Part shown: positions 49,894 through 63,943 of the stretch, one piece after another | Layout: each line of letters opens with the position of its first letter | How positions within the stretch are numbered: position 1 is the stretch's first letter | Origin: an uncultured delta proteobacterium | Lineage (GTDB): Bacteria > Myxococcota > Myxococcia > SLRQ01 | Length of the DNA stretch: 64,000 bases | Direction of reading: 5' to 3' | Assembly: GCA_963727485.1 (NCBI GenBank) | Contig: CAVSGM010000011.1 | Span: 32,001-96,000, forward strand | Notes under the pieces: generated by a model | The model's input: the letters and a program-made list of their open reading frames with translations, nothing else | Databases searched by the model: none | Told to the model about the DNA's origin: nothing | Program-made: the position numbers and the translations under genes

Positions 49894-51240
49894 ATGCGTG
49901 CTCCTGTGCTCAAGGTGGCCCTCGCCCTCGCCGCTGCGCTCCTGCTCCCCGCGTCCGCCCGCGCCGCCGGGCCCGTGCCCGCCGACGGCTGCCCCACGGC
50001 GACGAAGGCGGGGCACTGGGCCCGGATCCCGCCGATGCCCGGCCGGTCGCCGCGGCCCGCGCGCGTCACCGGGGAACCGACCCAGCCGCCCTGGCGGACG
50101 GTCTTCGCCCTCGGCCGCCTCTACGTGTTCACCGCAGGGGGCCATGGCCTCGCCTTCGACCCCTGCCGGGGCGCGTGGGCCCGGTTCCCCTCGCCAACGA
50201 CCCCGGCGCCGCCGGCGCACGCCTCGCCGGATCCCGATCCCGCCCTCGACTCCGAGATGGCCCTGGCCCCCACGGCCTACTGGCACCTGGTCCCCGAGCT
50301 CCGGCGCTCCGCGGGCACCCGGGGCCACCCCCTGCAGGTCTTCGACGGGGCGGTGGTCAAGCTCCGTCGGCGCGTGCACCTCACCGCCGCCGGGGCGCCG
50401 GCACCCCGCGCGCCCCGAAGCTACGTCCTCGCCGCCGCCGGTGACCGGGTGATCGTCTGGGGTGGGCGCACCGCCTCCGGGCTGACCAACCGCGGCGCGG
50501 TCTTCGACGCGAAGACCCGGCGGTGGCGGCCGATGACCACCGCGGGCGCCCCGTCCCCCCGGGAGTCGGTGAGGGTGGTCTGGTGGACGGGGCGGCGCCT
50601 GGTGGTCTGGGGCGGCCGGGACGCGGCGGGCGCCCGCACCGACGGCGCCGCCTACGACCCGGTCCGGGACCGCTGGCGCGCCCTCCCCGCTGCCGGCGCG
50701 CCGACCACCCGGACGGTCCCTGGCGTCGCCGTGGCCTCCGGCCGTCGCCTCGTCGTCCTCCCGGCGCCCGGCGGCGACCCGGCGACCGGGGGGGTCTACG
50801 ATCGGGTGACGAACCGCTGGCGGCCGGTGGCGCCGCCCCAGGGGACATGGCCGGGGTACGAGACGCAGATCCACCGCGACGGCCCCCGGCGCCTGGTGTT
50901 CGCCGACGTCCAGAACCGGCGCCTCGAGGTCCTGGACCTGACGACCGGGCGGTGGACCGGGGTGCCCTTCGCCGGCGCCCACCTCTCCCCGCGGACGATG
51001 CCGGCGATCCACTGGACCGGGGCGCGCCTGGTGGTCTTCGGGGGCGTCGATCGGAAGATGGTGAGCCCCGGCGGCGGCTGCGGGGGACCAAGGCCCCCTG
51101 GCATGGGCTGCGACCCGGTGCCGCCCATCTTCCTCCGCGTCGTCCGCCGCGACGGGGCGATTTACCGCCCTCGACCCCCAGGTCGGGGGGCCGGCCGACC
51201 GGCAAAGCCTACGGCTGCACCTGGCTCTCCTCATAGGTGA
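49894..51240 (+). CDS. Secreted Kelch-like beta-propeller protein
   Basis: Signal peptide; repeated (V/I)VWGG...GA.(F/Y)DP...RWR...GAP. Confidence 0.78.
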   Translation: MRAPVLKVALALAAALLLPASARAAGPVPADGCPTATKAGHWARIPPMPGRSPRPARVTGEPTQPPWRTVFALGRLYVFTAGGHGLAFDPCRGAWARFPSPTTPAPPAHASPDPDPALDSEMALAPTAYWHLVPELRRSAGTRGHPLQVFDGAVVKLRRRVHLTAAGAPAPRAPRSYVLAAAGDRVIVWGGRTASGLTNRGAVFDAKTRRWRPMTTAGAPSPRESVRVVWWTGRRLVVWGGRDAAGARTDGAAYDPVRDRWRALPAAGAPTTRTVPGVAVASGRRLVVLPAPGGDPATGGVYDRVTNRWRPVAPPQGTWPGYETQIHRDGPRRLVFADVQNRRLEVLDLTTGRWTGVPFAGAHLSPRTMPAIHWTGARLVVFGGVDRKMVSPGGGCGGPRPPGMGCDPVPPIFLRVVRRDGAIYRPRPPGRGAGRPAKPTAAPGSPHR

Positions 51241-52873
51241 TGGTGCAGGAGCGGAAGGCCTCGGACGAGCCGTCGAGGTTCACGTAGAAGAGGAGCCGGT
51301 GGGTGGCGTTGTCCATGCCGGCGGTGACGGTCTGCGACAGGGTCTGGGCCGCCGTGCTCTCGGTGGTCGTCCGCATCGAGGCCAGGATGCTGCCACTGCC
51401 CGCGTCGTCCGCGCTCCAGAAGAAGACCAGGCTCACCGATCCCGAGGGGTTGTTGTCGAAGACATGGCAGGTCAGGTTGGTGACGGTCACCCCGTTGGGG
51501 ACGTGGATGGGGCAGTAGAGGGTCCCGATGCCGGAGGTGACGTAGGCGTTCATGCCATTGCTGCTCACCGTGCCGCTGTGGACCTTGCAGTCCACCGGGG
51601 AGACGTTCAGGGTGCCCGTGACCGGCTGGGCGTAGCGATAGCGACCGTTCTGCACCATCACGTCGCCCTTGAAGTAGCCGGCGTAGCTGGTGCTGGTGCC
51701 GCCGGACGCCTGGGCCATGATGCCGTAGGCGTTCTGGCCACCGGACGCGAAGAAGTTCCCGCCGACGTTGGTGCCCGCCTTGGTGGCGACGCCGTCCACG
51801 CCGTAGGCGAAGCTGGAGCTGGCGTTGCCCGCCTGCCCGGTCACCCCGGCGGCGATGACCCCGCCCGAGGTGGCCGAGCCGGCGATGGCGGTCTCCGAGG
51901 CGGTGGTGCTGATGCCCGAGTTCGTCACCGAGAGGGCCGCGTTCTGACCCACCGAGCCGCTGGCGTTCCCGGTGACGGTCACCGCCAATCCGCCGCCGCT
52001 CCGGCCGTCCACGGTGAGCGGCCCGGTCATGCTGTCCCCGGCGACGTTCACGTAGCGCGGGTCCAGGGTGCTCCGGAGATCGGCGTTGGTGCGGGTGGTG
52101 TCGAGGTCGGCCTGGCAGCTCCAGCTCGACCCGCCCCACTTGGGCACCTGGCCGGTGGCGCACGAGAGGCTCGCCCGGGCCAGGGCGTTGACCGTGGGGT
52201 CGGTCTCGGAGGTGATCCCGGTGGCGTCGGCGGCGCAGCCCCAGCCGCCGGCGCCCGCCTTGAGCACCTGACCCGAGGCGCAGCTCATCAGCCCGATCCG
52301 GTTGTTCGCCGAGGCGTTCAGGGTCAGCGGCGAGGCGGTGGTGTAGGTGGTGTCGTCGTCGCCGTCGTCGAGGCCGGCGGGGCGGTTCTGGATGTCGGTC
52401 CAGTGGACCCCCTGACCCGAGGTCATCAGCTGGCTCGCCGGGATGCCCCCGACGCTGGCGGCGTCTCCGGCGTACTGGGCGTAGGCGGCGTAGGGGGTGG
52501 AGCCGAGGACCAGCCGCGGGCTCATCTCGGCGTCGGTGCCCACCTGGATGCCGAGGAAGGTCGCCGGGTCGTCCCGGAAGACCGAGAGATCGAGGGGCGT
52601 GTTCTGGCCCAGGTAGACGGTGAAGAAGCCATGGTCGACCATCACCGTCTGGGTCTCCTGGTAGACGGCCGTGCCGCCGGTGGCGGTGGTGTAGAGGCTG
52701 AGGGTGAGGTCGGTCTGGCCGTCGACGGGCTGGCCGGTGGCGTCCGTCAGGTAGCCCTGCACCGGGAGGAACGCCGGGGCGGTGCCGGGGGTCTGGGCGT
52801 GGGCGAGGGCCGGCGCCAGGGCGAGGCCGAGGGCCAGGACGAGCGCGGTCACGTGGGATCGGGTGCGGATCAT
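51209..52873 (-). CDS. Secreted fibre/adhesin-like protein, copy A (alternative coupled start 52903)
   Basis: Signal peptide; QGYLTD..GQPV...GFFTVYLG...EMSPR..L.STPYA N-domain; CxxGQVxKxxxxxWxCxxD repeats; Gly/Ala beta-repeat stalk; YAGYFxGDV; distinct C-terminal tip. Confidence 0.75.
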   Translation of the reverse strand: MIRTRSHVTALVLALGLALAPALAHAQTPGTAPAFLPVQGYLTDATGQPVDGQTDLTLSLYTTATGGTAVYQETQTVMVDHGFFTVYLGQNTPLDLSVFRDDPATFLGIQVGTDAEMSPRLVLGSTPYAAYAQYAGDAASVGGIPASQLMTSGQGVHWTDIQNRPAGLDDGDDDTTYTTASPLTLNASANNRIGLMSCASGQVLKAGAGGWGCAADATGITSETDPTVNALARASLSCATGQVPKWGGSSWSCQADLDTTRTNADLRSTLDPRYVNVAGDSMTGPLTVDGRSGGGLAVTVTGNASGSVGQNAALSVTNSGISTTASETAIAGSATSGGVIAAGVTGQAGNASSSFAYGVDGVATKAGTNVGGNFFASGGQNAYGIMAQASGGTSTSYAGYFKGDVMVQNGRYRYAQPVTGTLNVSPVDCKVHSGTVSSNGMNAYVTSGIGTLYCPIHVPNGVTVTNLTCHVFDNNPSGSVSLVFFWSADDAGSGSILASMRTTTESTAAQTLSQTVTAGMDNATHRLLFYVNLDGSSEAFRSCTITYEESQVQP

Positions 52874-52899
52874 GGGGATCTCCAGGGAAGCGAGGGGAT

Positions 52900-53271
52900 T
52901 CATCGGCCCGGGCTGGCGCCGGTGTTGAGCTGGTGGCTGCCGCCGCCGGTGTGGCCGGCGGGCTGGGGCGCGCCGACGCTGAAGCGGAGCCGGTAGTGGG
53001 TCGAGGCGGCGGTGCCGCTGCCACCGGTGAGCGAGGCCCCCGGGTGCAGGGGCTGCCCGGTGGCGCCGCCGTCGGTGACGCCACCGTCGGTCGTGCCGCC
53101 GTCGGTGACGCCACCGTCGATCGTGCCGCCGTCGCCACCGTCGGTCGTGCCGCCGTCGGTCACGGCACCGCCGCCACCGTCGGCCTGGGTGCCGCTGCCC
53201 TTCGTGGCGGGGCAGCCGGCGAGGGTGCCCGCCGCGAAGAGGGCGAGCAGCCAGTGGGTCCTGCGAGTCAT
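52900..53271 (-). CDS. Small lipoprotein with TDGG linker and conserved C-terminal beta motif, copy A
   Basis: Lipobox LAGC; GASLTGGSGTAASTHYRLRFSVGAPQPAG. Confidence 0.78.
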   Translation of the reverse strand: MTRRTHWLLALFAAGTLAGCPATKGSGTQADGGGGAVTDGGTTDGGDGGTIDGGVTDGGTTDGGVTDGGATGQPLHPGASLTGGSGTAASTHYRLRFSVGAPQPAGHTGGGSHQLNTGASPGR

Positions 53272-53452
53272 CGACACCTCCTGCGTGGGTCGTCCGTGGC
53301 GACGCGCCACGACGTTCGCGGACCCTCGCAGGGCGGCGTCAACGCGCCGTCAAAGGCGTCCGCGCCGCCCCTGGGTGCCCTCCGCTCCGGGGCCCACCCC
53401 ACCTTGTGGCACCGCCGCCCCGTGCCTACCGCTTGCTCCAAGGAGGCAACCC

Positions 53453-53827
53453 ATGGACGTACAGACGACCCAGCTCGACACCAACGCCCTGCTCACCCAG
53501 TACCTCAACGTGGTCAACCGGGCGATCCGGTCCCACAAGGACAAGGTGCCCTTCAAGCAGATCCTCGACGTCGCCCAGAAGGCGCTCGCCGGGAAGCGCT
53601 TCGGGGTGGCGGTCTACAAGACCGACCCCGACAAGCCCCATGACTACTTCACCCTCGTCTGGCGCGACGGGGGCCTGGCCATCGCCGACCATGGGAAGAA
53701 GGACGTGGACCTCGCCTGGCGGGTGAAGGAGGACCACCTCACCAACGTGGTCACCAAGCCCGAGCCCTTCGTCGACAACCCGGCGCGCCTGGACCTCGAC
53801 TGGCTGAAGACCCGCCTCGGGCTCTAG
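53453..53827 (+). CDS. Hypothetical protein (possibly SCP2-like fold)
   Basis: AAGGAGG RBS; compact 124-aa ORF with coding-like codon usage. Confidence 0.7.
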   Translation: MDVQTTQLDTNALLTQYLNVVNRAIRSHKDKVPFKQILDVAQKALAGKRFGVAVYKTDPDKPHDYFTLVWRDGGLAIADHGKKDVDLAWRVKEDHLTNVVTKPEPFVDNPARLDLDWLKTRLGL

Positions 53828-55497
53828 GGGAGCACCTCGGTCGCCTGGTAGGTGAACACGCAGGCGCGGAACTCCATGTTGGTGTTGAAGCTGACACGGA
53901 TGCTGAGCCGCTGGGTCGTGTTGTCCTGAAACAGGTTCAGGGCCGCCGACAGCGTCTGGACCGAGGCGCTGTTGGTGGTCGCGGTCAGCGTCGTCACCGG
54001 GCTCGCGGAGCCGGCGCTGATCGAGGCCTTGCCGAGGACCACGCTAAGGTTGTCGGAGCCGTTGTTGTCGATGACGGTGCAGGTCATGTGGGTGAGCGTC
54101 ACACCGCTGGGGACGCTGACGGGGCAGAGGATGACTGCCGAGCCGGCGGTGTCGTAGATGGTCGCCCCGCCGTACCAGGGCGGGATCCCTCCGCCATAGG
54201 CCTCGGTCACGCAGTTCGGCGGTGAGACGACCACGCTGCCGGTGACCGGCGCGGCGTAGCGGTAGCGCCCGTTCGACACCATCACGTCGCCCCGGAAGTA
54301 GCCGGCGTAGTTGACGTTGGAGCCCCCGACCGCCTGGGCCATGATGCCGTAGGCGTTGGTGCCCCCGGACGCCAGGAAGCTCCCGCCGATGTTGTTGGCC
54401 GCCTTGCTCGCCACGCCCTCCACCGCGTAGGCGTAGGCCGAGGCGGCGCTCCCGGCCTTCCCGACCAAGGCGGAGGCGAGGGCCCCGCCCGAGGTGGCGT
54501 CGGCGGCGATGGCGGTCTCCGAGGCGGTGGTGCTGGTGCTCTGGTTCACCACCGAGAGGGCCGCGTTCTGCCCCAGCGCGCCGCTCCCGTCCCCGGTGAC
54601 GGTGACCGCCGAGGTCCCGCTCCCGGTGGTGTCCACGGCGAGGGCGCCGGTCATGGCGTCTCCGGTGACGTTGACGTAGCGCGGATCGAGGGTGCTCTGG
54701 AGGTCGGCGTTGGTGCGGGTGGTGTCCAGGTCGTTCTGGCAGCTCCAGCTCGAGCCGCCCCACTTGGGTACCTGGCCCGCGGCGCAGGAGAGGCTCGCCT
54801 TGGCCAGGGCATTGACCGTGGGATCGGTCTCGGTGGTCAGCCCGCTGACATCGGCGGCGCAGCCCCAGCCGCCGGAGGTGGCCTTGAGGACCTGGCCCGA
54901 GGCGCAGCTCATCAGCCCGATCCGGTTGCCCGCCGTGGCGTCCAGGGTGAGCGGCGCGCCGGTGGTGTAGGTGGTGTCGTCGTCCCCGTCGTCGAGGCCG
55001 GCGGGGCGGTTCTGGATGTCGGTCCAGTTCACCCCCTGGCCCACCTTCTGGAGCTGGCTGGCGGGGATGCCGCCGACGCTCGCCGCATCCCCGGCGTACT
55101 GCGCGAAGGCGGCGTAGGGCGTGGTGCCCAGGACCAGGCGCGGGGACATCTGGGCATCGGTGCCCACCTGGACGCCGAGGAAGAGCTGGCCGTGGTCGCG
55201 GAAGAGGGACAGGTCCAGGGGCCAGTTCTGGCCGAGGTAGAGGGTGAAGAACCCGTGGTCCACCATCACCGTCTGGGTCTCCTGGTAGAGGACGCTGCCG
55301 GCGATGGCCGTGGCGTAGAGGCTGAGGGTGAGGTCGGTCTGGCCGTCGATGGGCTGGCCCGCGGCGTCGGTGAGGAAGCCCTGCACCGGGAGGAACGCCG
55401 GGGCGGTGCCCGCGCTCTGGGCCTTCGCGAGGGCGGGGGTCAGGACCAGGCCGAGGGCCACGACGGCGGCGACGAAGGGAGCGCGAGTGGGGATCAT
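53824..55497 (-). CDS. Secreted fibre/adhesin-like protein, copy B (alternative coupled start 55527)
   Basis: Collinear with copy A up to RYRYA, then a divergent tip. Confidence 0.75.
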   Translation of the reverse strand: MIPTRAPFVAAVVALGLVLTPALAKAQSAGTAPAFLPVQGFLTDAAGQPIDGQTDLTLSLYATAIAGSVLYQETQTVMVDHGFFTLYLGQNWPLDLSLFRDHGQLFLGVQVGTDAQMSPRLVLGTTPYAAFAQYAGDAASVGGIPASQLQKVGQGVNWTDIQNRPAGLDDGDDDTTYTTGAPLTLDATAGNRIGLMSCASGQVLKATSGGWGCAADVSGLTTETDPTVNALAKASLSCAAGQVPKWGGSSWSCQNDLDTTRTNADLQSTLDPRYVNVTGDAMTGALAVDTTGSGTSAVTVTGDGSGALGQNAALSVVNQSTSTTASETAIAADATSGGALASALVGKAGSAASAYAYAVEGVASKAANNIGGSFLASGGTNAYGIMAQAVGGSNVNYAGYFRGDVMVSNGRYRYAAPVTGSVVVSPPNCVTEAYGGGIPPWYGGATIYDTAGSAVILCPVSVPSGVTLTHMTCTVIDNNGSDNLSVVLGKASISAGSASPVTTLTATTNSASVQTLSAALNLFQDNTTQRLSIRVSFNTNMEFRACVFTYQATEVLP

Positions 55498-55523
55498 GCG
55501 GGTCTCCGGGGGAGCGAGCGGGG

Positions 55524-55916
55524 TCATCGGCCGGGGCTGGCGCCGGTGGTGATCTGGTGGGTGCCGCCGCGGGTGCGGCCGGCGGGCTGGGGCGCGCCGA
55601 CGTTGAGGTGGAGCCGGTAGTGGGTCGAGGCGGCGGCACCGCTGCCGCCGGTGAGGGAGGCGCCCGGGTGCATCGGCTGGCCGGGCGTGCCGGCGTCGGT
55701 GGCGCCCCCGCCATCGGGGCTCCCACCGTCGGCGACCGGGCCGCCGTCCGTCGTGCCCCCATCGGTGCTGCCGCCGCCGTCCGCGCCCGTGCTGCCGCCA
55801 TCGGTGACGCCTCCGCCACCGCCGTCAGCGTGGGTGCCGACGCCCGAGGTGGCGGGGCAGCCGGCGAGCGCACCGACGGCCACCAGCGCGAGCAGAAAGC
55901 AGGTCCAGCGAGTCAT
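55524..55916 (-). CDS. Small lipoprotein with TDGG linker, copy B
   Basis: Lipobox LAGC; HPGASLTGGSGAAASTHYRLHLNVGAPQPAG. Confidence 0.78.
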   Translation of the reverse strand: MTRWTCFLLALVAVGALAGCPATSGVGTHADGGGGGVTDGGSTGADGGGSTDGGTTDGGPVADGGSPDGGGATDAGTPGQPMHPGASLTGGSGAAASTHYRLHLNVGAPQPAGRTRGGTHQITTGASPGR

Positions 55917-56083
55917 GGACATCTCCTTCCCTGGATGTCCGCGGCGAAGGGCCGCGACCGTGACCCAATCCATAGGAAGACCGTCAGGCCCTCGTCAAAC
56001 CCCAGACCGGGGGACCTCGAGGTCACCTGGCCCGGGCGCCAGGGGGCTTGACCGGAGGCCGATCGCCGGCCGAACCTCGAACG

Positions 56084-58416: not shown

Positions 58417-58815
58417 CTACCAGCCGCCGCCGCCGCCGCCGCCACGACCGCCGCGGCCACCGCCGCGACCGCCCCGGCCGCCACCGCCGCCACGGCCGCC
58501 GCCGCCGCCGCCGAAGCCGCCGCCGCCGCCGCCACCGCCGAAGCCGCCGCCGCCGCCGCCACGGGGACGACGCTCCTCGGCCTCGTTCACCCGGAGGGGC
58601 CGGCCGTCGAGCATGGTGCCGTCCATGGCCTCGATGGCCTTCTTGGCCGCGTCCTCGTCACCCATGGTGACGAAGGCGAAGCCTCGGCTGCGGCCGGTGT
58701 CCCGGTCGAGCATGAGGCGGAGATCGGTGATCTCGCCGAACTGGGCGAAGGTCTCCCGAAGGATGTCCTCGGTGGTGCCAAAGGACAGGTTGCCAACGTA
58801 CAGGCGATTGTTCAT
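58417..58815 (-). CDS. RRM RNA-binding protein with a Gly/Arg-rich tail
   Basis: RNP2 LYVGNL, RNP1 RGFAFVTM, GRPLRVNEA, RGG tail. Confidence 0.95.
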   Translation of the reverse strand: MNNRLYVGNLSFGTTEDILRETFAQFGEITDLRLMLDRDTGRSRGFAFVTMGDEDAAKKAIEAMDGTMLDGRPLRVNEAEERRPRGGGGGGFGGGGGGGGFGGGGGGRGGGGGRGGRGGGRGGRGGGGGGGW

Positions 58816-59008
58816 CTGCGTCTTCTCACGAGCGACCGAGCGCGCACTAAGCGCATGAGAAAGACTGACACCCGAAGGGTCGCGACGCCGTGTGTCAGTT
58901 GCAGCAGAAGAGGTGCTGCCTCCGCCCGTTGCCGGAGGTAACGGCCTCGTCGCGCACCCACGATACTCGTGAGGAGAGAGCAGAGAGCCGAGCTGCCAGA
59001 AACGGTAC
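58816..59008 (-). promoter_or_regulatory. Long structured 5' leader of the RRM gene
   Basis: Consecutive hairpins, the last of which pairs over the GAGAAG ribosome-binding region. Confidence 0.5.
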
Positions 59009-59178: not shown

Positions 59179-60093
59179 ATGAAGCGCATCTCCCTGGGCC
59201 TGGCGGTCCTCCTCTGCTCCTTCACCCTGGCCACGGCCTGCAACCAGCCCACCGACACCGGCAACGGCGGCGGGACGGACGGCGGCACCACCGGCGGCAC
59301 CACCGACGGCGGGACCACCGGCGGCACCACCGACGGCGGGACCACCGGGGGCACCACCGATGGCGGCACCACCGGGGGCACCGACGGCGGCACCACCGCC
59401 ACCCCGGGCACCCTCACCGTGAACTCCTCGGGGAACGCGCTGCCGGGGGCCTGGATGGTCTCCGACGCCACCGTCCTCGCCAGCGACGGCTCCGGCGCCG
59501 GCGCCACCGACCACCAGGACGTCCTGGTGACCCTCAACGTCGCCACCACCGTCAACGCCAGCGCCAACTGCGCCATCCCCTACAAGACCTACTGCGACAG
59601 CTTCACCGTCCAGGACGCCAGCGGGAACCAGGTGGTCGTCGACGACTACAGCTTCCTCGGGACCCACCCGGCCTGCACCATGCCCCCTGCGGACGGCACC
59701 AGCCTCACCACCGTCACCGGCACCTGGGAGGCCCACTACGACTCGACGCTCAAGAAGACCACCTGGGCCATCGCCCTGGCGGACTGCTCGGGCATCGGGC
59801 AGGGCACCGCCTACAGCGGCTCCAACCAGGCGCCCCTCTCCCAGGACATCGCGAACCTCAAGGCCAACGGGGGGCTCCAGGACGGGCCCAGCGGCTCGGT
59901 GAGCGGGGTGGTCATCGCCGCCTGGTCGGCGAAGACCGCCTGGGGCTTCACCATGGAGGACCCCGACGGCGGGGCCGCCATCACCGTGAAGTGGAGCAGC
60001 TCCTCGTCGAGCACCGCCACCGAGCCCGCGGTGGGCGACGACGTGACCGTGACCGGCACCGTGGTCGCGGTGGCCAACGAGATCAAGCTCTAG
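59179..60093 (+). CDS. Lipoprotein with a GGTTDGGTT repeat linker and probable OB-fold-like domains
   Basis: Lipobox ATAC; 27-bp repeats at about 59270-59398; VSGVVIA...GFTMED...PAVGDDVTVTGTV. Confidence 0.75.
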   Translation: MKRISLGLAVLLCSFTLATACNQPTDTGNGGGTDGGTTGGTTDGGTTGGTTDGGTTGGTTDGGTTGGTDGGTTATPGTLTVNSSGNALPGAWMVSDATVLASDGSGAGATDHQDVLVTLNVATTVNASANCAIPYKTYCDSFTVQDASGNQVVVDDYSFLGTHPACTMPPADGTSLTTVTGTWEAHYDSTLKKTTWAIALADCSGIGQGTAYSGSNQAPLSQDIANLKANGGLQDGPSGSVSGVVIAAWSAKTAWGFTMEDPDGGAAITVKWSSSSSSTATEPAVGDDVTVTGTVVAVANEIKL

Positions 60094-60105: not shown

Positions 60106-60774
60106 TCAGCGCCGCCCGTAGTCGAGCGGCGTCCCCTGGCGCTGGGCGAGGATGTAGGCCTCCAGGGCCCGCATCCTCGCTCCGTCCGGGTCGAAGCCCG
60201 GACCCCGCACCGGCTGCTCCGCGCACCAGTTGATCATGTCGCGGAGCAGCGCCACCCGCCCCAGCTGCACCTGGAACTTGGGGTAGGTCTCGGGGTGGGT
60301 GTTGGCGGCGTCGGGGTGGCACATGTCGCAGCTCACCGCGACGGTGCTCCCCAGCTCGTCGGCGCTGTGGAAGATCTTCGAGCCCATGGCCACCAGCTTC
60401 CGGGTCTCCCGGTCCCAGGTGGCCACGTCGGCGGCGGTGATCTGGCCGGAGGTGGCCCCCTGGCCCCGGCCCACGACGCCCGAGTTGTCCGCCGGCGGCT
60501 TGATGACGTGGCGGGCGTGCTGCTCGGCGACCCAGTCGCTCTCCGGGTGCATCCGCTGCCACTGGGCCATGATCGCCGCGGCCACCTTCACCCCGTTGTC
60601 GTGGGTGGGGTGGGCGGTGGCCTCGGCCATGGCGTCCTTCACCGCCGGGGTGGCCATGGGCGTGGGCTGCGCCTCGGCCCGGGGGGCCTGGTCGTGGGTG
60701 CAGCCGGCGACGACGATCGCCGCCGTGGCTGCAAGGAGGGTCCCCATCCTTCGGGTCACCGCGTGCGCGTCCAT
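60106..60774 (-). CDS. Monoheme cytochrome c lipoprotein, SoxA/TsdA-like
   Basis: Lipobox VAGC; CDMCH...TYPKFQVQLGRVALLRDMINWC...G....DG..MRALEAYI. Confidence 0.78.
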   Translation of the reverse strand: MDAHAVTRRMGTLLAATAAIVVAGCTHDQAPRAEAQPTPMATPAVKDAMAEATAHPTHDNGVKVAAAIMAQWQRMHPESDWVAEQHARHVIKPPADNSGVVGRGQGATSGQITAADVATWDRETRKLVAMGSKIFHSADELGSTVAVSCDMCHPDAANTHPETYPKFQVQLGRVALLRDMINWCAEQPVRGPGFDPDGARMRALEAYILAQRQGTPLDYGRR

Positions 60775-60785
60775 CGTCCCCTCCG

Positions 60786-61916
60786 TCAGTAGCTGGTGAG
60801 GTTGGGCCTGGCCGGGGCGGCGCGGCGGCCGCGGCTTGCGAGGTACCGGGCCCGCACCGTCACCGGGTTGCGGTTCCAGAGGTTGTAGACCTTGTCCACC
60901 AGGCCGTCCGGGTGGACCAGCGCCGTCCCGTCGCCGCAGCCGTCGCTCGGGTTGAAGGGGTCGGGGCGGTTCATCTGCACCGTGAGCGCCGGCAGCCCCT
61001 CGGGGGCGTAGGGCCAGGGCCAGGCGGTGGAGAGCATCCCGTGGAAGTCGATGTTGCCGATGCGGTTGGTGAGCAGCTGGTGGGTGTGGCCGTGGATCAC
61101 GGTCACGTGGCGGAAACGCTTGAGGATCGCCTGGACCTCCTCGGCGTCCACGGTCCAGAAGTTCCAGGGCTCGTAGTACTTGTAGAGGGGCGAGTGGCTG
61201 AAGACGATCACCGGGGTGGTCGCGCGCACCTTCGCCAGGTCGGCCTTGAGCCACGCCCGCTGGGGCGCGCCCACCTCGAAGCGGCTCTGGATCCCGTTGT
61301 CGAGGCCGGCGACGGTCTGCATCCGCTCCATGGGCGTCAGGTTGCGCTGGGTCCAGAAGTCCTGCTCCACCACGCTGTTGAGGACCACGAAGTGCACGCC
61401 CTTGTGGTCGAAGCTGTAGGTGGGCTTGCCGAACATCTCCCGCCACTTCTGGCCGAGGTCGAAGTACCAGTCGTGCTCGCCGACCATCATGTGGACCGGC
61501 GCCTTGAGGTGCTTGAGGATGGACGCGCCGAGCTCGAGCTCGGCGCCCTGGCCGAGCTGGGCGAGGTCGCCGCCGTAGAGGACGAAGTCGGGCTGGGGGT
61601 CGAGGGCGTTCACGTCGTCCACCGCCCGGAGCAGGCCGTTGACGAAGCGGTCGTTGACGGCCTTCTCGTAGAGGTGGGAGTCGGAGATGTAGGCGATGCG
61701 GAAGCCCGTCTGCTTCCCGTCGCCCTCGGCGGCGTAGGCGACGTCGATGGGCATGAACGAGTGGGGGAACCACAGGTCCTTGGCGAGGACGGCGCCGGCG
61801 GCGGCGAGCGACACCCGGAGGAAGTCCCGGCGGTCCAGGTGGGCGAGGCCCCGGAACAGGCCCTGGCGCTCGCGCTCGTGCTTCGTCTCCACGCTCTCGA
61901 TCTTCGGGCGCTTCAT
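60786..61916 (-). CDS. Tat-exported calcineurin-like metallophosphoesterase
   Basis: DRRDFLR Tat motif; ISDSH, GGDLAQ, VGEHD, FSHSP, HGHTH. Confidence 0.88.
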   Translation of the reverse strand: MKRPKIESVETKHERERQGLFRGLAHLDRRDFLRVSLAAAGAVLAKDLWFPHSFMPIDVAYAAEGDGKQTGFRIAYISDSHLYEKAVNDRFVNGLLRAVDDVNALDPQPDFVLYGGDLAQLGQGAELELGASILKHLKAPVHMMVGEHDWYFDLGQKWREMFGKPTYSFDHKGVHFVVLNSVVEQDFWTQRNLTPMERMQTVAGLDNGIQSRFEVGAPQRAWLKADLAKVRATTPVIVFSHSPLYKYYEPWNFWTVDAEEVQAILKRFRHVTVIHGHTHQLLTNRIGNIDFHGMLSTAWPWPYAPEGLPALTVQMNRPDPFNPSDGCGDGTALVHPDGLVDKVYNLWNRNPVTVRARYLASRGRRAAPARPNLTSY

Positions 61917-61920
61917 CGCC

Positions 61921-63312
61921 TCACTCCTTCCCCGCGGGGGTGCCCTGGACGCGCTGCTCGAAGGGCAGGACCTTGCGCTGGGCCAGCGCATCGTCCCGGA
62001 ACGGCCGCTTCCCCTCGTCGATGGCGATGTGGCGCTGGGCCGCCTCCTCCCGGGCGTTGTCGGCGGCGAGGCGGTCGTCGGTGAGGGTGAAGAGGAAGGC
62101 GACCAGGTCGTTCACCTCGGCCTCGGTGAGCGCCAACGGCTCGATGCCCCCGTCGAGGAACGGGTTGGCGTCGCCGCCCTTGTTGTAGTGGTCGACGACG
62201 TCCCAGAGGGTGCGCATGGAGCCGTCGTGCATGTAGGGCGCGGTGATGCCCACGTTGGTGACCTGGAGGGTCTTGAAGGCGCCGATGTCGGCGCGGTCCT
62301 TGGTGACCAGGAACCGCCCGAGCTCGGACATGTCGGTCTCGAGCGCCAGGCGATCGACCTCGTGGATGCCGCCGTCCTTGGCCAGGGCCGTGAGGGCCTT
62401 CACCGCCAGGCCCTCGAAGTCCTGGTGGAGGGCGGCGACGCCGAGGTTGTGGAACCGGTTGTCGGTGCCCACGGGGTTGGTGGGGCTGATCGGGTGGCAG
62501 CTCACGCACCTTGCCTTGCCGTTGTAGAGGATCCACCCGCGCTTCGCCGACTCGGAGATGGCGCTCTGGTCCCCGGCGACGAAGCGGCGGAACGGCGAGT
62601 CGAGGAAGACCAGGGTGCGCTCGAAGGCGGCGATGGCCTTGCCGGTGTCGGTGTAGTTGGGCGCGTGGCCGTAGGCGGCCTGGAACATCGGCGCGTAGGC
62701 GGGCTCGGCGGCGAGCGCCCGCTCCACCGCCTTGGCGTTGGGCTGGCCCATCTCGATGGGGTTGACCAGGGGCAGCTCCGCCTGCTTCTCCAGGCTCGCG
62801 GCCCGGCCGTCGAGGAACTGGGTCTGGAGAAAGAGGGCGTTGAGGGTGGTCGGGGCGTTGCGCTTGCCCAGCTGCCCGTGGATGCCCTCGGAGGTCGGCC
62901 GCTGGTCGGTGAAGCCCCGGCTCACGTCGTGGCAGGTGGCGCAGGAGACGGTGCCGTCGGCGGAGAGCTTGGGATCGAAGTAGAGCTTCCTGCCCAGCGC
63001 CACCCGCTCGGGGGTCATGGCGTTGTCCTTGGGGACGAGCTCGGCCCAGACCACCGGGTCGATGTCCTTGGGCCTCGTCGCCACCGCGCGGCCCTTCACC
63101 AGGGCGTCGAAGCGCTGCTCCTGCTCGGCCTCGGCGAGGGCCCCGTGGGGCGCGAGCTGGCCCTCGGGGACGGTGGGCGAGATGTCGGTCCGGGACGGCG
63201 TCCCCTGGGCCCCGGCACCCTGGGCCACCCCGACCGCGGCGGTGATGATGATGGCGACAGTGGCGGCCATGGCCACCACGTCCACGCGACACGTCCCCCC
63301 GGTCTTGCGCAT
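61921..63312 (-). CDS. Diheme bCcP/MauG-family enzyme (MauG-like Tyr ligand)
   Basis: LGRKLYFDPKLS, CATCH, RNAPT, QFLDGRA, NPIEM, CVSCH, TAPYMHDG...VVDHY. Confidence 0.9.
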   Translation of the reverse strand: MRKTGGTCRVDVVAMAATVAIIITAAVGVAQGAGAQGTPSRTDISPTVPEGQLAPHGALAEAEQEQRFDALVKGRAVATRPKDIDPVVWAELVPKDNAMTPERVALGRKLYFDPKLSADGTVSCATCHDVSRGFTDQRPTSEGIHGQLGKRNAPTTLNALFLQTQFLDGRAASLEKQAELPLVNPIEMGQPNAKAVERALAAEPAYAPMFQAAYGHAPNYTDTGKAIAAFERTLVFLDSPFRRFVAGDQSAISESAKRGWILYNGKARCVSCHPISPTNPVGTDNRFHNLGVAALHQDFEGLAVKALTALAKDGGIHEVDRLALETDMSELGRFLVTKDRADIGAFKTLQVTNVGITAPYMHDGSMRTLWDVVDHYNKGGDANPFLDGGIEPLALTEAEVNDLVAFLFTLTDDRLAADNAREEAAQRHIAIDEGKRPFRDDALAQRKVLPFEQRVQGTPAGKE

Positions 63313-63437
63313 CGGTCCCCCCGGCTCGATGGGCGCGCCCCGGCCAGGCCGCGGCGCTTGGGCAACCCTACGTCATTCACCGTGGGGGACAAGGCGGGGC
63401 TGATCCCCAGGGATGGGATCCCGGTTACCCTCTTGCC

Positions 63438-63890
63438 GTGCCCACCCACCTGGAGAGCTATCGCCCGCTGCTCCCCGCCCTCGCCGCCGAGGGTGACGAT
63501 CCACGGGCCTGCCTGGAGGCGCTGGGTGTCGATCCGGACGCCGAGGTCGGGGACGGGGCGGAGCGCGTCGCCGAAGGGCTCCTCGCCGCCGGGATCGCCC
63601 GGCGCGGCGACGCCTTTGCGCTGCGCGCCGGCGCCTGCCTCGACCTCGGCGACCTCGGGCTCTACGGCTACGCCTGCCTCACCGCTCCGGACCTGGGGAC
63701 GGCGCCGAGGTGGTGCCGCGGGCGGTGACCTTCGCCCACGCCGCCCCCGAGGACGCCCGGGCATTTCGGGCGCGGTTCCGGGCGCCGGTGGTCTTCGGGG
63801 CGCCGCGCCACGCCGTGGTGCTCCCCCGGGCGCGCCACGGCCACCCGGCGCTCGCCGCCTACTTCGAGGCCGAGGCCGCGCCGGCCATCG
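63438..63890 (+). pseudogene. Degenerate AraC-family (OruR/ArgR-type ligand-binding domain) remnant
   Basis: GDLGLYGYACLTAPDLGTA, then in another frame VTFAHAAP...FRAPVVFGAPRHAVVL...HPALAAYFE; internal segments and the HTH are missing. Confidence 0.6.
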
Positions 63891-63943
63891 GCATCGGGGC
63901 CCGATGTGCAGTAGGGTGGCCGCCCAGCCAGGAGGAACCCGAC

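Follow-up and report, generated by a model that had tools for sequence, protein, structure and literature searches.

A widely conserved periplasmic gene trio of a His/Tyr diheme enzyme, a metallophosphoesterase-fold protein and a cytochrome c, with a probable redox role

The locus and its conservation

The locus at 60106..63312 of the window (the whole 64,000-nt stretch of DNA that was analyzed) raises the question of what a His/Tyr diheme enzyme does beside a calcineurin-like phosphoesterase and a cytochrome c. Profile matches and recomputed coordinates gave three genes for exported proteins on the minus strand, with 4 nt (61917-61920) between P0001 and P0002 and 11 nt (60775-60785) between P0002 and P0003, exactly the layout described in a first-pass annotation. 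The latter had proposed that the diheme enzyme converts a Trp of the WPW motif of P0002 into a cofactor, creating a redox enzyme that passes electrons to P0003. The features that bear on this proposal are the following:

61921..63312, minus strand: P0001, exported diheme enzyme of the bCCP/MauG superfamily, His/Tyr type (463 aa, PF03150, two CxxCH)
62812..62814, minus strand: Leu167 of P0001, at the position of the inter-heme Trp93 of MauG (80 relatives: Trp 49, Leu 29, unreadable 2)
62512..62514, minus strand: Ala267 of P0001, at the position of MauG Trp199 (Ala, Gly or Thr in 35/35 trio enzymes)
62203..62205, minus strand: Trp370 of P0001, candidate electron entry or exit residue (invariant in the family; the Tyr ligand follows six residues later)
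62185..62187, minus strand: Tyr376 of P0001, equivalent of MauG Tyr294, the distal ligand of the six-coordinate heme (invariant in 35/35)
60786..61916, minus strand: P0002, Tat-type calcineurin-like metallophosphoesterase-fold protein with a GpdQ/Rv0805-like fold (376 aa, PF00149)
61470..61481, minus strand: GEHD of P0002, with Glu147 where GpdQ (GNHD) has its metal-binding Asn; 120/120 close homologs, 60/60 over both clades
61080..61091, minus strand: GHTH metal-binding motif of P0002 (motif reading)
61014..61022, minus strand: WPW of P0002, W299-P-W301, kept with or without a diheme partner
60106..60774, minus strand: P0003, monoheme SoxA/TsdA-domain cytochrome c (222 aa, PF21342, one CxxCH)
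60316..60330, minus strand: CDMCH heme-binding motif of P0003 (motif reading)
60223..60234, minus strand: INWC of P0003, with Cys184 as predicted distal heme ligand beside the invariant Trp183 (alignment)

Of 597 genome loci, the best 80 all have the diheme gene immediately upstream of the phosphoesterase gene (80/80) and the xWPWPY motif (80/80), while the cytochrome gene lies directly downstream in 78/80, the two remaining loci both being cut by contig edges; related genomes share ancestry, and these neighbor counts are not independent. Because adjacency and motif are kept across these loci, the arrangement is not due to chance, and the trio is syntenic elsewhere, as its first description presumed. 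A literature search, with subscription journals outside its coverage, found no paper describing the trio and no characterized operon of this composition, again in line with the first-pass annotation. The trio is thus a widely conserved, unstudied periplasmic module. Apparent phosphoesterase-cytochrome gene fusions (15 long cytochrome homologs, nine of them inspected, plus four odd-length phosphoesterase representatives) were discarded as frameshift artefacts, since the sequence there runs through out-of-frame text. MXAN_5562 of Myxococcus xanthus was also rejected as a studied ortholog: this gene of 1110 nt carries an annotation as most similar to the Nitrosomonas peroxidase, MXAN_5561 is a 399-nt hypothetical gene, and the transcript near 8.80 Mb has different neighbors.

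Residues of the three proteins

P0001 contains two CxxCH motifs and matches PF03150 with 184.5 bits (cut-off 25.6), as expected for the bCCP/MauG superfamily. The Tyr that the first-pass annotation had seen 14 residues after the His of PYMHDG, where classical peroxidases have Met, indeed aligns with MauG Tyr294; Tyr occupies this position in 78/80 loci (two are unreadable), the Met ligand of classical bCCP is absent, and the peroxide-site residues Gln177, Pro181 and Glu187 (MauG Gln103, Pro107 and Glu113) are invariant in 35/35 trio enzymes, so the His/Tyr assignment stands. The Ca-site residues Asn152, Thr357 and Pro359 are retained as well, and Trp370 has no counterpart in MauG in the alignment. 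Trp199, the position taken by Ala267 in P0001, is the surface relay Trp of MauG. A surface Trp relay is described for MauG, without a residue number, in PMC11951088, and the inter-heme role of Trp93 in PMC6405878. The trio enzyme shares with MauG/preMADH and MbnH/MbnP the His/Tyr six-coordinate heme, the Gln/Pro/Glu peroxide site and a neighboring exported protein with a conserved Trp (PMC11951088), whereas it scores below both NCBIfam cut-offs (222.7 bits against 443.85 for the MauG model TIGR03791, and 223 bits against 362.85 for the MbnH model TIGR04039), and its neighbors are the phosphoesterase and the cytochrome, with no adjacent mauAB or mbnP, as had been reported. BthA of Burkholderia is a distant match (E 1.7e-14); this His/Tyr enzyme also adjoins an exported putative phosphatase, PhosA, has no inter-heme Trp and, supplied with an electron donor, turns over H2O2; its authors suggest a possible oxidation of PhosA while leaving the function of BthA open (PMC6405878). 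Unlike the trio, however, the BthA locus has no cytochrome, Lys replaces Ca in BthA, and the phosphatase upstream of a candidate BthA-like Burkholderia diheme gene belongs to PF04185, which is unrelated to P0002.

P0002 shows PF00149, the fold and the DxH, GD, H and GHxH ligands of calcineurin-like metallophosphoesterases (predicted metal ligands D79, H81, D117, E147, H241, H277 and H279), together with a Tat-like RR motif whose TAT_signal score is just below the cut-off. Foldseek returned a plain GpdQ/Rv0805 fold (E 1.6e-12), the HxP motif is shared with GpdQ, Rv0805 and CpdA, the general-acid His148 and every hydrolase ligand are kept, and databases label such proteins CpdA/Icc (4799 matches, annotated as cAMP phosphodiesterases). 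Nevertheless, the protein differs from GpdQ, Rv0805 and CpdA in its low identity (17-19%), the GEHD motif, the Tat-type export signal, an inserted DFWT..ERM segment and its obligate electron-carrier neighbors, and it falls outside the CpdA/GpdQ class III phosphodiesterases (GEHD instead of GNH[DE]; 32.9 bits against a family cut-off of 225). STAWPWPY was found shortly after GHTH, as annotated; W299 shows a weak alignment with GpdQ His217, immediately past the last core strand, and is predicted to stand at an active-site loop position. Mature-domain Trp residues of P0002 are conserved in 9/9 cases, compared with 87/307 residues overall, although in any family Trp exceeds other residues in conservation. 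The first-pass annotation had mentioned neither the GEHD variant of the customary GNHD motif nor Leu167 at the position of the inter-heme Trp.

P0003 has a lipobox-like VAGC (residues 22-25) and finds its best match in the SoxA N-terminal heme domain, and an ESM Atlas search returned PF21342 clusters as 29/30 matches plus one unnamed cluster. Its single CxxCH and INWC, both annotated before, were confirmed, and Cys184, invariant in 60/60 sequences, aligns with TsdA Cys96 and the Cys heme ligands of SoxA. By contrast, the thiosulfate-binding residues of TsdA, namely Arg119 (invariant in TsdA and SoxA, four before the Cys), Arg109 and Ser127 (PMC4423706), are replaced by Met180, Gln170 and Pro188; the Arg119 position holds Met in 70/78 diheme-clade and 66/70 copper-clade loci, and Ala, Ile or an unread residue in the rest. 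His/Cys hemes are low-potential (PMC6879331), and this one would therefore suit only a strongly reducing substrate or chemistry based on a ligand switch.

The copper clade and a third branch

In a tree, diheme-linked and copper-linked phosphoesterases form separate clades, so the partner swap was one event and functions may have diverged. The copper (sister) clade keeps WxW in 78/80 loci and retains the same cytochrome, encoded directly downstream in 70/80 with every miss at a contig end, whereas the gene directly upstream encodes an amicyanin-like or cupredoxin-like protein in 65/65 informative loci and a diheme enzyme in 0/65. H131, C168, H171 and M174 of the amicyanin-like protein are invariant. 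Surrounding genes, counted in 90 loci, include ccoN-like (51/90), ccoOP-like (46/90) and SCO (24/90) genes, and one inspected ccoN-like protein has a Tyr six residues ahead of the HH pair, a feature of cbb3 O2 reductases; an FNR/FixK box upstream was found at one locus only. SoxYZ-like fusion genes, a likeness to the Sox system, occur in 21/90 loci, in some of them as the gene that immediately follows the cytochrome gene, Sinorhizobium meliloti has soxY/soxZ and a flavocytochrome-like gene, and rhodanese genes occur in 5/90 copper-clade and 5/82 diheme-clade loci. A His/Tyr diheme gene lies nearby in 2/90 copper-clade loci (L134, L160). Among seven copper-clade genomes, two (G289, G598) gave no PF03150 match, two gave short, partial ones, and three have full-length but unlinked PF03150 genes; one such genome, of 7.2 Mb, has no CCP/MauG gene. 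In the third GEHD branch, which has neither WxW nor a Cys-ligated heme partner, the gene immediately downstream encodes a cupredoxin in 20/21 genomes from a sample of 401 that was drawn evenly, and Glu-for-Asn at the metal-ligand position is common to all three branches.

Proposed function and its alternatives

These comparisons led us to hypothesize, with a probability of roughly 45%, that the dimetal protein and the His/Cys cytochrome oxidize a substrate whose electrons pass through the diheme enzyme to H2O2. The fixed core would consist of the Glu-modified phosphoesterase-fold protein, performing redox chemistry at its dimetal site, and the cytochrome, and likely oxidizes a small reduced substrate; electrons may be relayed through W299 and W301, in Trp-rich active-site loops, and W183 of the cytochrome. 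The diheme enzyme would be an exchangeable end-piece that likely hands these electrons to peroxide as the acceptor, its place being taken in the copper clade by the cupredoxin together with a cbb3-type oxidase. SorT, for comparison, depends on molybdenum. In the sorT-cytochrome c-pseudoazurin operon of S. meliloti, a periplasmic sulfite dehydrogenase, a cytochrome c and a cupredoxin feed the respiratory chain (PMC3511301); the copper clade has this architecture, with the dimetal phosphoesterase fold in the slot of SorT. The proposal is favored because (i) the phosphoesterase-cytochrome pair is fixed while the third part swaps, (ii) the third GEHD branch adjoins a cupredoxin and Glu replaces Asn in all branches, (iii) OxyR, Fur or PerR genes recur near the loci, (iv) BthA turns over H2O2 and, like P0001, lacks the inter-heme Trp, and (v) the layout matches that of the sorT operon. 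Counted against it are the retained hydrolase ligands and His148, the plain GpdQ/Rv0805 fold, the low potential of the heme and, in the window, the absence of a peroxide regulator beside the operon. The phosphoesterase-fold protein and the cytochrome are probably redox-linked, as their carrier neighbors and GEHD suggest, and this part of the first-pass annotation is supported, while its Trp-derived cofactor is not. As for the substrate, the weakest step, our first guess is a reduced sulfur oxyanion or a sulfane species, at about one chance in three.

Peroxide might instead be handled at the carboxylate-enriched dimetal site itself, as in a pseudo-catalase or peroxidase for which the cytochrome, the diheme enzyme or the cupredoxin feeds or balances electrons; this would be a periplasmic peroxide defense with no further substrate, and we regard it as unlikely. 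OxyR or Fur/PerR genes flank 27/82 trio loci, with Fur/PerR-family genes in 17/82, and two-Cys OxyR occurs beside both clades (10/82 diheme-clade, 9/90 copper-clade loci), including the one without a diheme enzyme; however, OxyR can also respond to sulfane sulfur. OxyR is directly upstream of the trio in Minicystis rosea and Chondromyces apiculatus (L019, L012), for which an oxyR-ccp arrangement is on record (PMC12754779), and in ECF26-derived groups a phosphoesterase with a cupredoxin or a cytochrome c occupies the slot of the catalase and cytochrome b561 of ECF26s1 (PMC7826278). On the other hand, the co-encoded cbb3-type oxidase is an electron sink that would not supply electrons, and for a pure catalase a cytochrome partner would be superfluous. 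At five loci a GAFTGA-type protein is encoded beside the trio, for which a PexR-type activator is a candidate identity only.

The original proposal, in which a bis-Fe(IV) diheme enzyme oxidizes a WPW Trp to a kynurenine or quinone serving as redox cofactor of the phosphoesterase-fold protein, now appears quite unlikely. It draws on the His/Tyr ligation and invariant peroxide site, the constant adjacency of the two genes, the predicted loop position of W299, the separate clade of diheme-linked phosphoesterases, the modification by MbnH of a Trp in WxW of MbnP (PMC11951088), and the few copper-clade loci and genomes with a nearby or unlinked diheme gene. WPW had been expected to be confined to trio-linked phosphoesterases, but WxW persists next to cupredoxin genes and even in G289 and G598; the Trp motif thus outlasts the enzyme. 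The reading is further weakened because the Trp199 equivalent is missing in 35/35 enzymes and that of Trp93 in 29/80, including P0001, and the third branch is redox-linked yet has no WxW. The diheme enzyme more likely consumes hydrogen peroxide than modifies its neighbor.

A miniature Sox-like cycle, in which a sulfur substrate attaches to the cytochrome Cys, as it does in SoxA/TsdA, and the phosphoesterase, its dimetal site still a hydrolase, cleaves an S-sulfonate like SoxB, is improbable. SoxB is a member of the same superfamily as calcineurin-like phosphoesterases. SoxAX/SoxB/SoxYZ and TsdA resemble the trio in placing a Cys-ligated c-type heme domain beside a dimetal protein of that superfamily (PMC4423706, PMC6879331), and SoxYZ-like genes accompany part of the copper clade; P0003, however, is monoheme and does not keep the substrate Arg/Ser positions, the third branch lacks a Cys-ligated heme partner, and SoxY was found in 3/52 trio genomes and not in the other 49, many of them incomplete MAGs, nor in the 93%-complete genome from which the window comes. 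The rarity of SoxY and the missing thiosulfate-binding residues therefore leave a Sox-type sulfur substrate poorly supported for the diheme clade. Just as improbable is an ordinary periplasmic phosphodiesterase or phosphatase, suggested by the fold, the complete class III catalytic motifs and the CpdA/Icc names, since co-regulation with a peroxidase and a cytochrome alone is insufficient when each of the three GEHD branches keeps a different adjacent electron carrier (78/80; 70/80 with 65/65; 20/21) and Glu for Asn is invariant.

Extended to the whole GEHD clade, with somewhat less than even odds, the oxidation of a substrate by the core would make it an oxidoreductase branch of the calcineurin-like metallophosphoesterases, in which a single ligand exchange, together with a cage of Trp residues, may have produced a dimetal redox enzyme that needs neither molybdenum nor flavin to oxidize a sulfur or oxygen species. 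Electrons would leave it through a His/Tyr diheme peroxidase to H2O2, through a cupredoxin and its dedicated cbb3-type oxidase to O2, or through a cupredoxin alone. If true, the superfamily would gain a chemistry absent from the papers searched, and a non-maturase His/Tyr diheme enzyme would gain a physiological electron donor. The trio makes testable the job of His/Tyr diheme enzymes that lack a mau or mbn partner; with the sister clade as an internal control, a maturase can be told from a terminal peroxidase, and cultured hosts are available (Methylocystis sp. MJC1, M. rosea and S. meliloti). Should these proteins indeed be redox enzymes, the current annotation would be wrong for a family that is widespread among soil bacteria, including myxobacteria, planctomycetes and rhizobia.

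The trio and its distribution

Re-reading of the window bore out the first-pass annotation on all three genes and on the gaps between them, the codons and the motifs. The operon and the features around it are as follows:

61921-63312 (-): P0001, diheme enzyme; PF03150 domain, two CxxCH motifs
60786-61916 (-): P0002, phosphoesterase-fold protein; PF00149 domain, twin-arginine-type leader
60106-60774 (-): P0003, monohaem cytochrome (PF21342)
63340-63420: short GGGATC/GATCCC repeats in inverted and direct orientation ahead of the diheme gene, a possible operator
63438-63930 (+): two overlapping frames upstream of the operon and divergent from it, apparently broken and lacking a DNA-binding end; possibly akin to the N-terminus of AraC-family regulators
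59179-60093 (+): 304-aa lipoprotein-like protein, encoded convergently to the cytochrome gene; it contains TTDGG repeats and several cysteines and matched no Pfam family
58417-58842 (-): RRM-domain RNA-binding protein (PF00076) with a Gly/Arg-rich tail
51209-55973 (-): gene pair present in two tandem copies (564/567-aa exported protein; 136/149-aa Gly/Thr-rich lipoprotein-like protein)

The window's own genome (93% complete) carries one phosphoesterase gene of this family and three PF03150 genes. Myxococcota are among the named organisms nearest to it in a tree, and are its presumed phylum. A scan of species genomes yielded at least 597 confirmed loci, and the best 80 (65-75% identity) were analyzed; they came from Myxococcota, Planctomycetota, Binatia, Alpha- and Gammaproteobacteria, Acidobacteriota, Spirochaetota and Thermodesulfobacteriota. 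The synteny for which the annotation had called was found elsewhere: among these 80, the diheme gene lay directly upstream in all (contig ends truncate some copies, and one is fragmented), the cytochrome gene directly downstream in 78 (the remaining two being contig ends), and xWPWPY was present in 80, while the trio recurred in 29/29 additional loci from the window's phylum. Its occurrence is patchy: an even sample of another phylum had the family in 3 of 401 genomes, a count that includes the centre, against 49 of 201 genomes of the window's own phylum for all branches together. One unpublished genome (G790, locus L065) adds one count each to the figures for the trio, for OxyR and for SoxY, and is the sole basis of no claim. 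Those phosphoesterase-cytochrome fusions that were read were frameshift artefacts. No description of the trio was found in the open literature, subscription journals lying outside the coverage. Built from known families, the trio forms a genuine periplasmic redox module, conserved and uncharacterised.

A sister operon with a cupredoxin-like protein

The annotation had expected WPW (W299-P-W301 of P0002) only in trio-linked phosphoesterases, and this expectation failed. Rhizobial plasmid matches (46-47% identity) retained WPWPY and the cytochrome with no diheme neighbour, and a metagenome scan directed at this "copper clade" gave 543 confirmed loci. Among the best 80, WxW was present in 78 (67 WPW, 9 WTW, 2 WNW; the other two cut off) and the cytochrome followed in 70 (the other 10 being contig edges). 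Upstream sequence of 400 nt or more was available at 65 loci; in every one the neighbouring upstream gene encoded a protein with invariant His131, Cys168, His171 and Met174, its profile weakly matching blue copper proteins and amicyanin, and in none a diheme enzyme. Since the copper clade keeps WxW without a diheme neighbour, the motif is independent of that partner and common to both sides of the split. A quick phosphoesterase tree, whose input also had 7 loci without labels and 14 representatives without context, separated diheme-linked (support 92) from copper-linked (support 100) branches; the exchange of diheme enzyme and cupredoxin is one single event.

The sister operon (L088, L003, L090-L169; e.g. 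L110:2455-3936, L125:4324-6051, L116:8561-10031) comprises the amicyanin-like protein, the GEHD phosphoesterase and a His/Cys cytochrome, to which are often added a rhodanese and a SoxYZ-like fusion that has a GGC motif inside it, and then SCO, hemA and a divergent oxidase of the cbb3 type (ccoN-like, fused ccoOP-like). The window's own genome has two distant amicyanin-like homologues (32-36%; G000:C5:18396-18974, G000:C1:22708-23178), unlinked to the operon.

Residue conservation in the three proteins

The predicted P0002 model (pLDDT 85.9) best matched the folds of GpdQ and Rv0805. P0002 keeps every metal ligand bar one, the Asn of GNHD being Glu (GEHD), as in 120/120 close homologues and in 60/60 sequences over the diheme and copper clades. 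Each of the nine mature-domain tryptophans is kept in 57 or more of those 60, a level of conservation reached by 87 of 307 residues overall. W299 aligns, in a weakly aligned stretch, with GpdQ His217, which we take to be a second-sphere residue. WxW is missing from a third GEHD branch, more distant than the other two, in which a small cupredoxin gene follows directly in 20/21 genomes (L170:4923-6264, L187-L210); in Ralstonia wenshanensis this pair is divergent from an ECF sigma/anti-sigma pair. The supplement of PMC7826278 lists such a pairing as ECF206 and ECF207 genomic context, its entries leaving the function unstated.

Aligned with MauG from a complete mau operon, 35/35 trio enzymes kept Gln103, Pro107, Glu113, His205, Thr275, Pro277, His280 and Tyr294, and 34/35 kept Asn66. 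Position 199, Trp in MauG, holds Ala, Gly or Thr in 35/35, Trp93 is Leu in P0001 and in 29 of the best 80 of at least 597 loci, and P0001 scores under the MauG and MbnH family cut-offs. BthA, likewise without Trp93, both forms bis-Fe(IV) and, given a donor, reduces H2O2 (PMC6405878); the anatomy of P0001 therefore permits both peroxidase and protein-oxidising roles. Trp370, invariant in this family and specific to it, lies near the Tyr ligand and could suit either role. The trio enzyme is probably not a maturase.

In alignment, Cys184 of P0003 occupies the place of the haem-ligating Cys in SoxA and TsdA, but the TsdA thiosulfate-binding residues Arg119, Arg109 and Ser127 (PMC4423706; the two numberings differ by 27, as deduced from Cys123 = Cys96) are Met180, Gln170 and Pro188, the family invariants being instead Lys166, Arg178, His136, His160 and Trp183. 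These replacements place P0003 outside the TsdA/SoxA catalytic group, with room left for a Cys-centred reaction with another anion.

Gene neighbourhoods and proposed electron flow

Neighbourhoods of 90 copper-clade loci contained ccoN-like (51), ccoOP-like (46), SCO (24), hemA (14), SoxYZ-like fusion (21) and rhodanese (5) genes; those of 82 diheme-clade loci contained Fur/PerR-family (17) and rhodanese (5) genes. OxyR with both cysteines occurred at 10/82 diheme-clade (0.97 Mb of DNA) and 9/90 copper-clade loci (0.72 Mb), several of them kin, and was absent from the window's own 5.55-Mb genome. PMC12754779, which treats the gene as a plain peroxidase, records oxyR-ccp for Minicystis rosea and Chondromyces apiculatus; these very probably correspond to L019 and L012. 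Of 52 trio genomes (50 from the best 80 of at least 597 loci, the window's own genome and G261), 3 had SoxY.

The dimetal protein with an electron carrier is the constant element and the electron destination the variable one; every step beyond gene order and residue conservation is inference. By gene content, the copper-clade chain ends at an O2-reducing oxidase, so that the simplest role for the core is that of an electron source; the diheme enzyme of the window's clade stands in the oxidase's place and would reduce H2O2 (probability about 0.45). That the dimetal site itself carries out peroxide chemistry is unlikely. Somewhat less likely still is the annotation's model, in which the diheme enzyme installs a Trp-derived cofactor in P0002: WxW persists where that partner is absent, and PF03150 matches are missing from 2 of 7 whole copper-clade genomes (G289, main contig 7.15 Mb; G598), two others having short partial matches only and the remaining three having full-length unlinked genes, although PF03150 genes lay in the fetched flanks of 4/90 copper-clade loci and two of these, of the His/Tyr type, speak for it. 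A Sox-like hydrolytic cycle and a plain phosphodiesterase are both improbable. The GEHD phosphoesterase-fold clade, rather than the diheme enzyme, is the object of greater interest.
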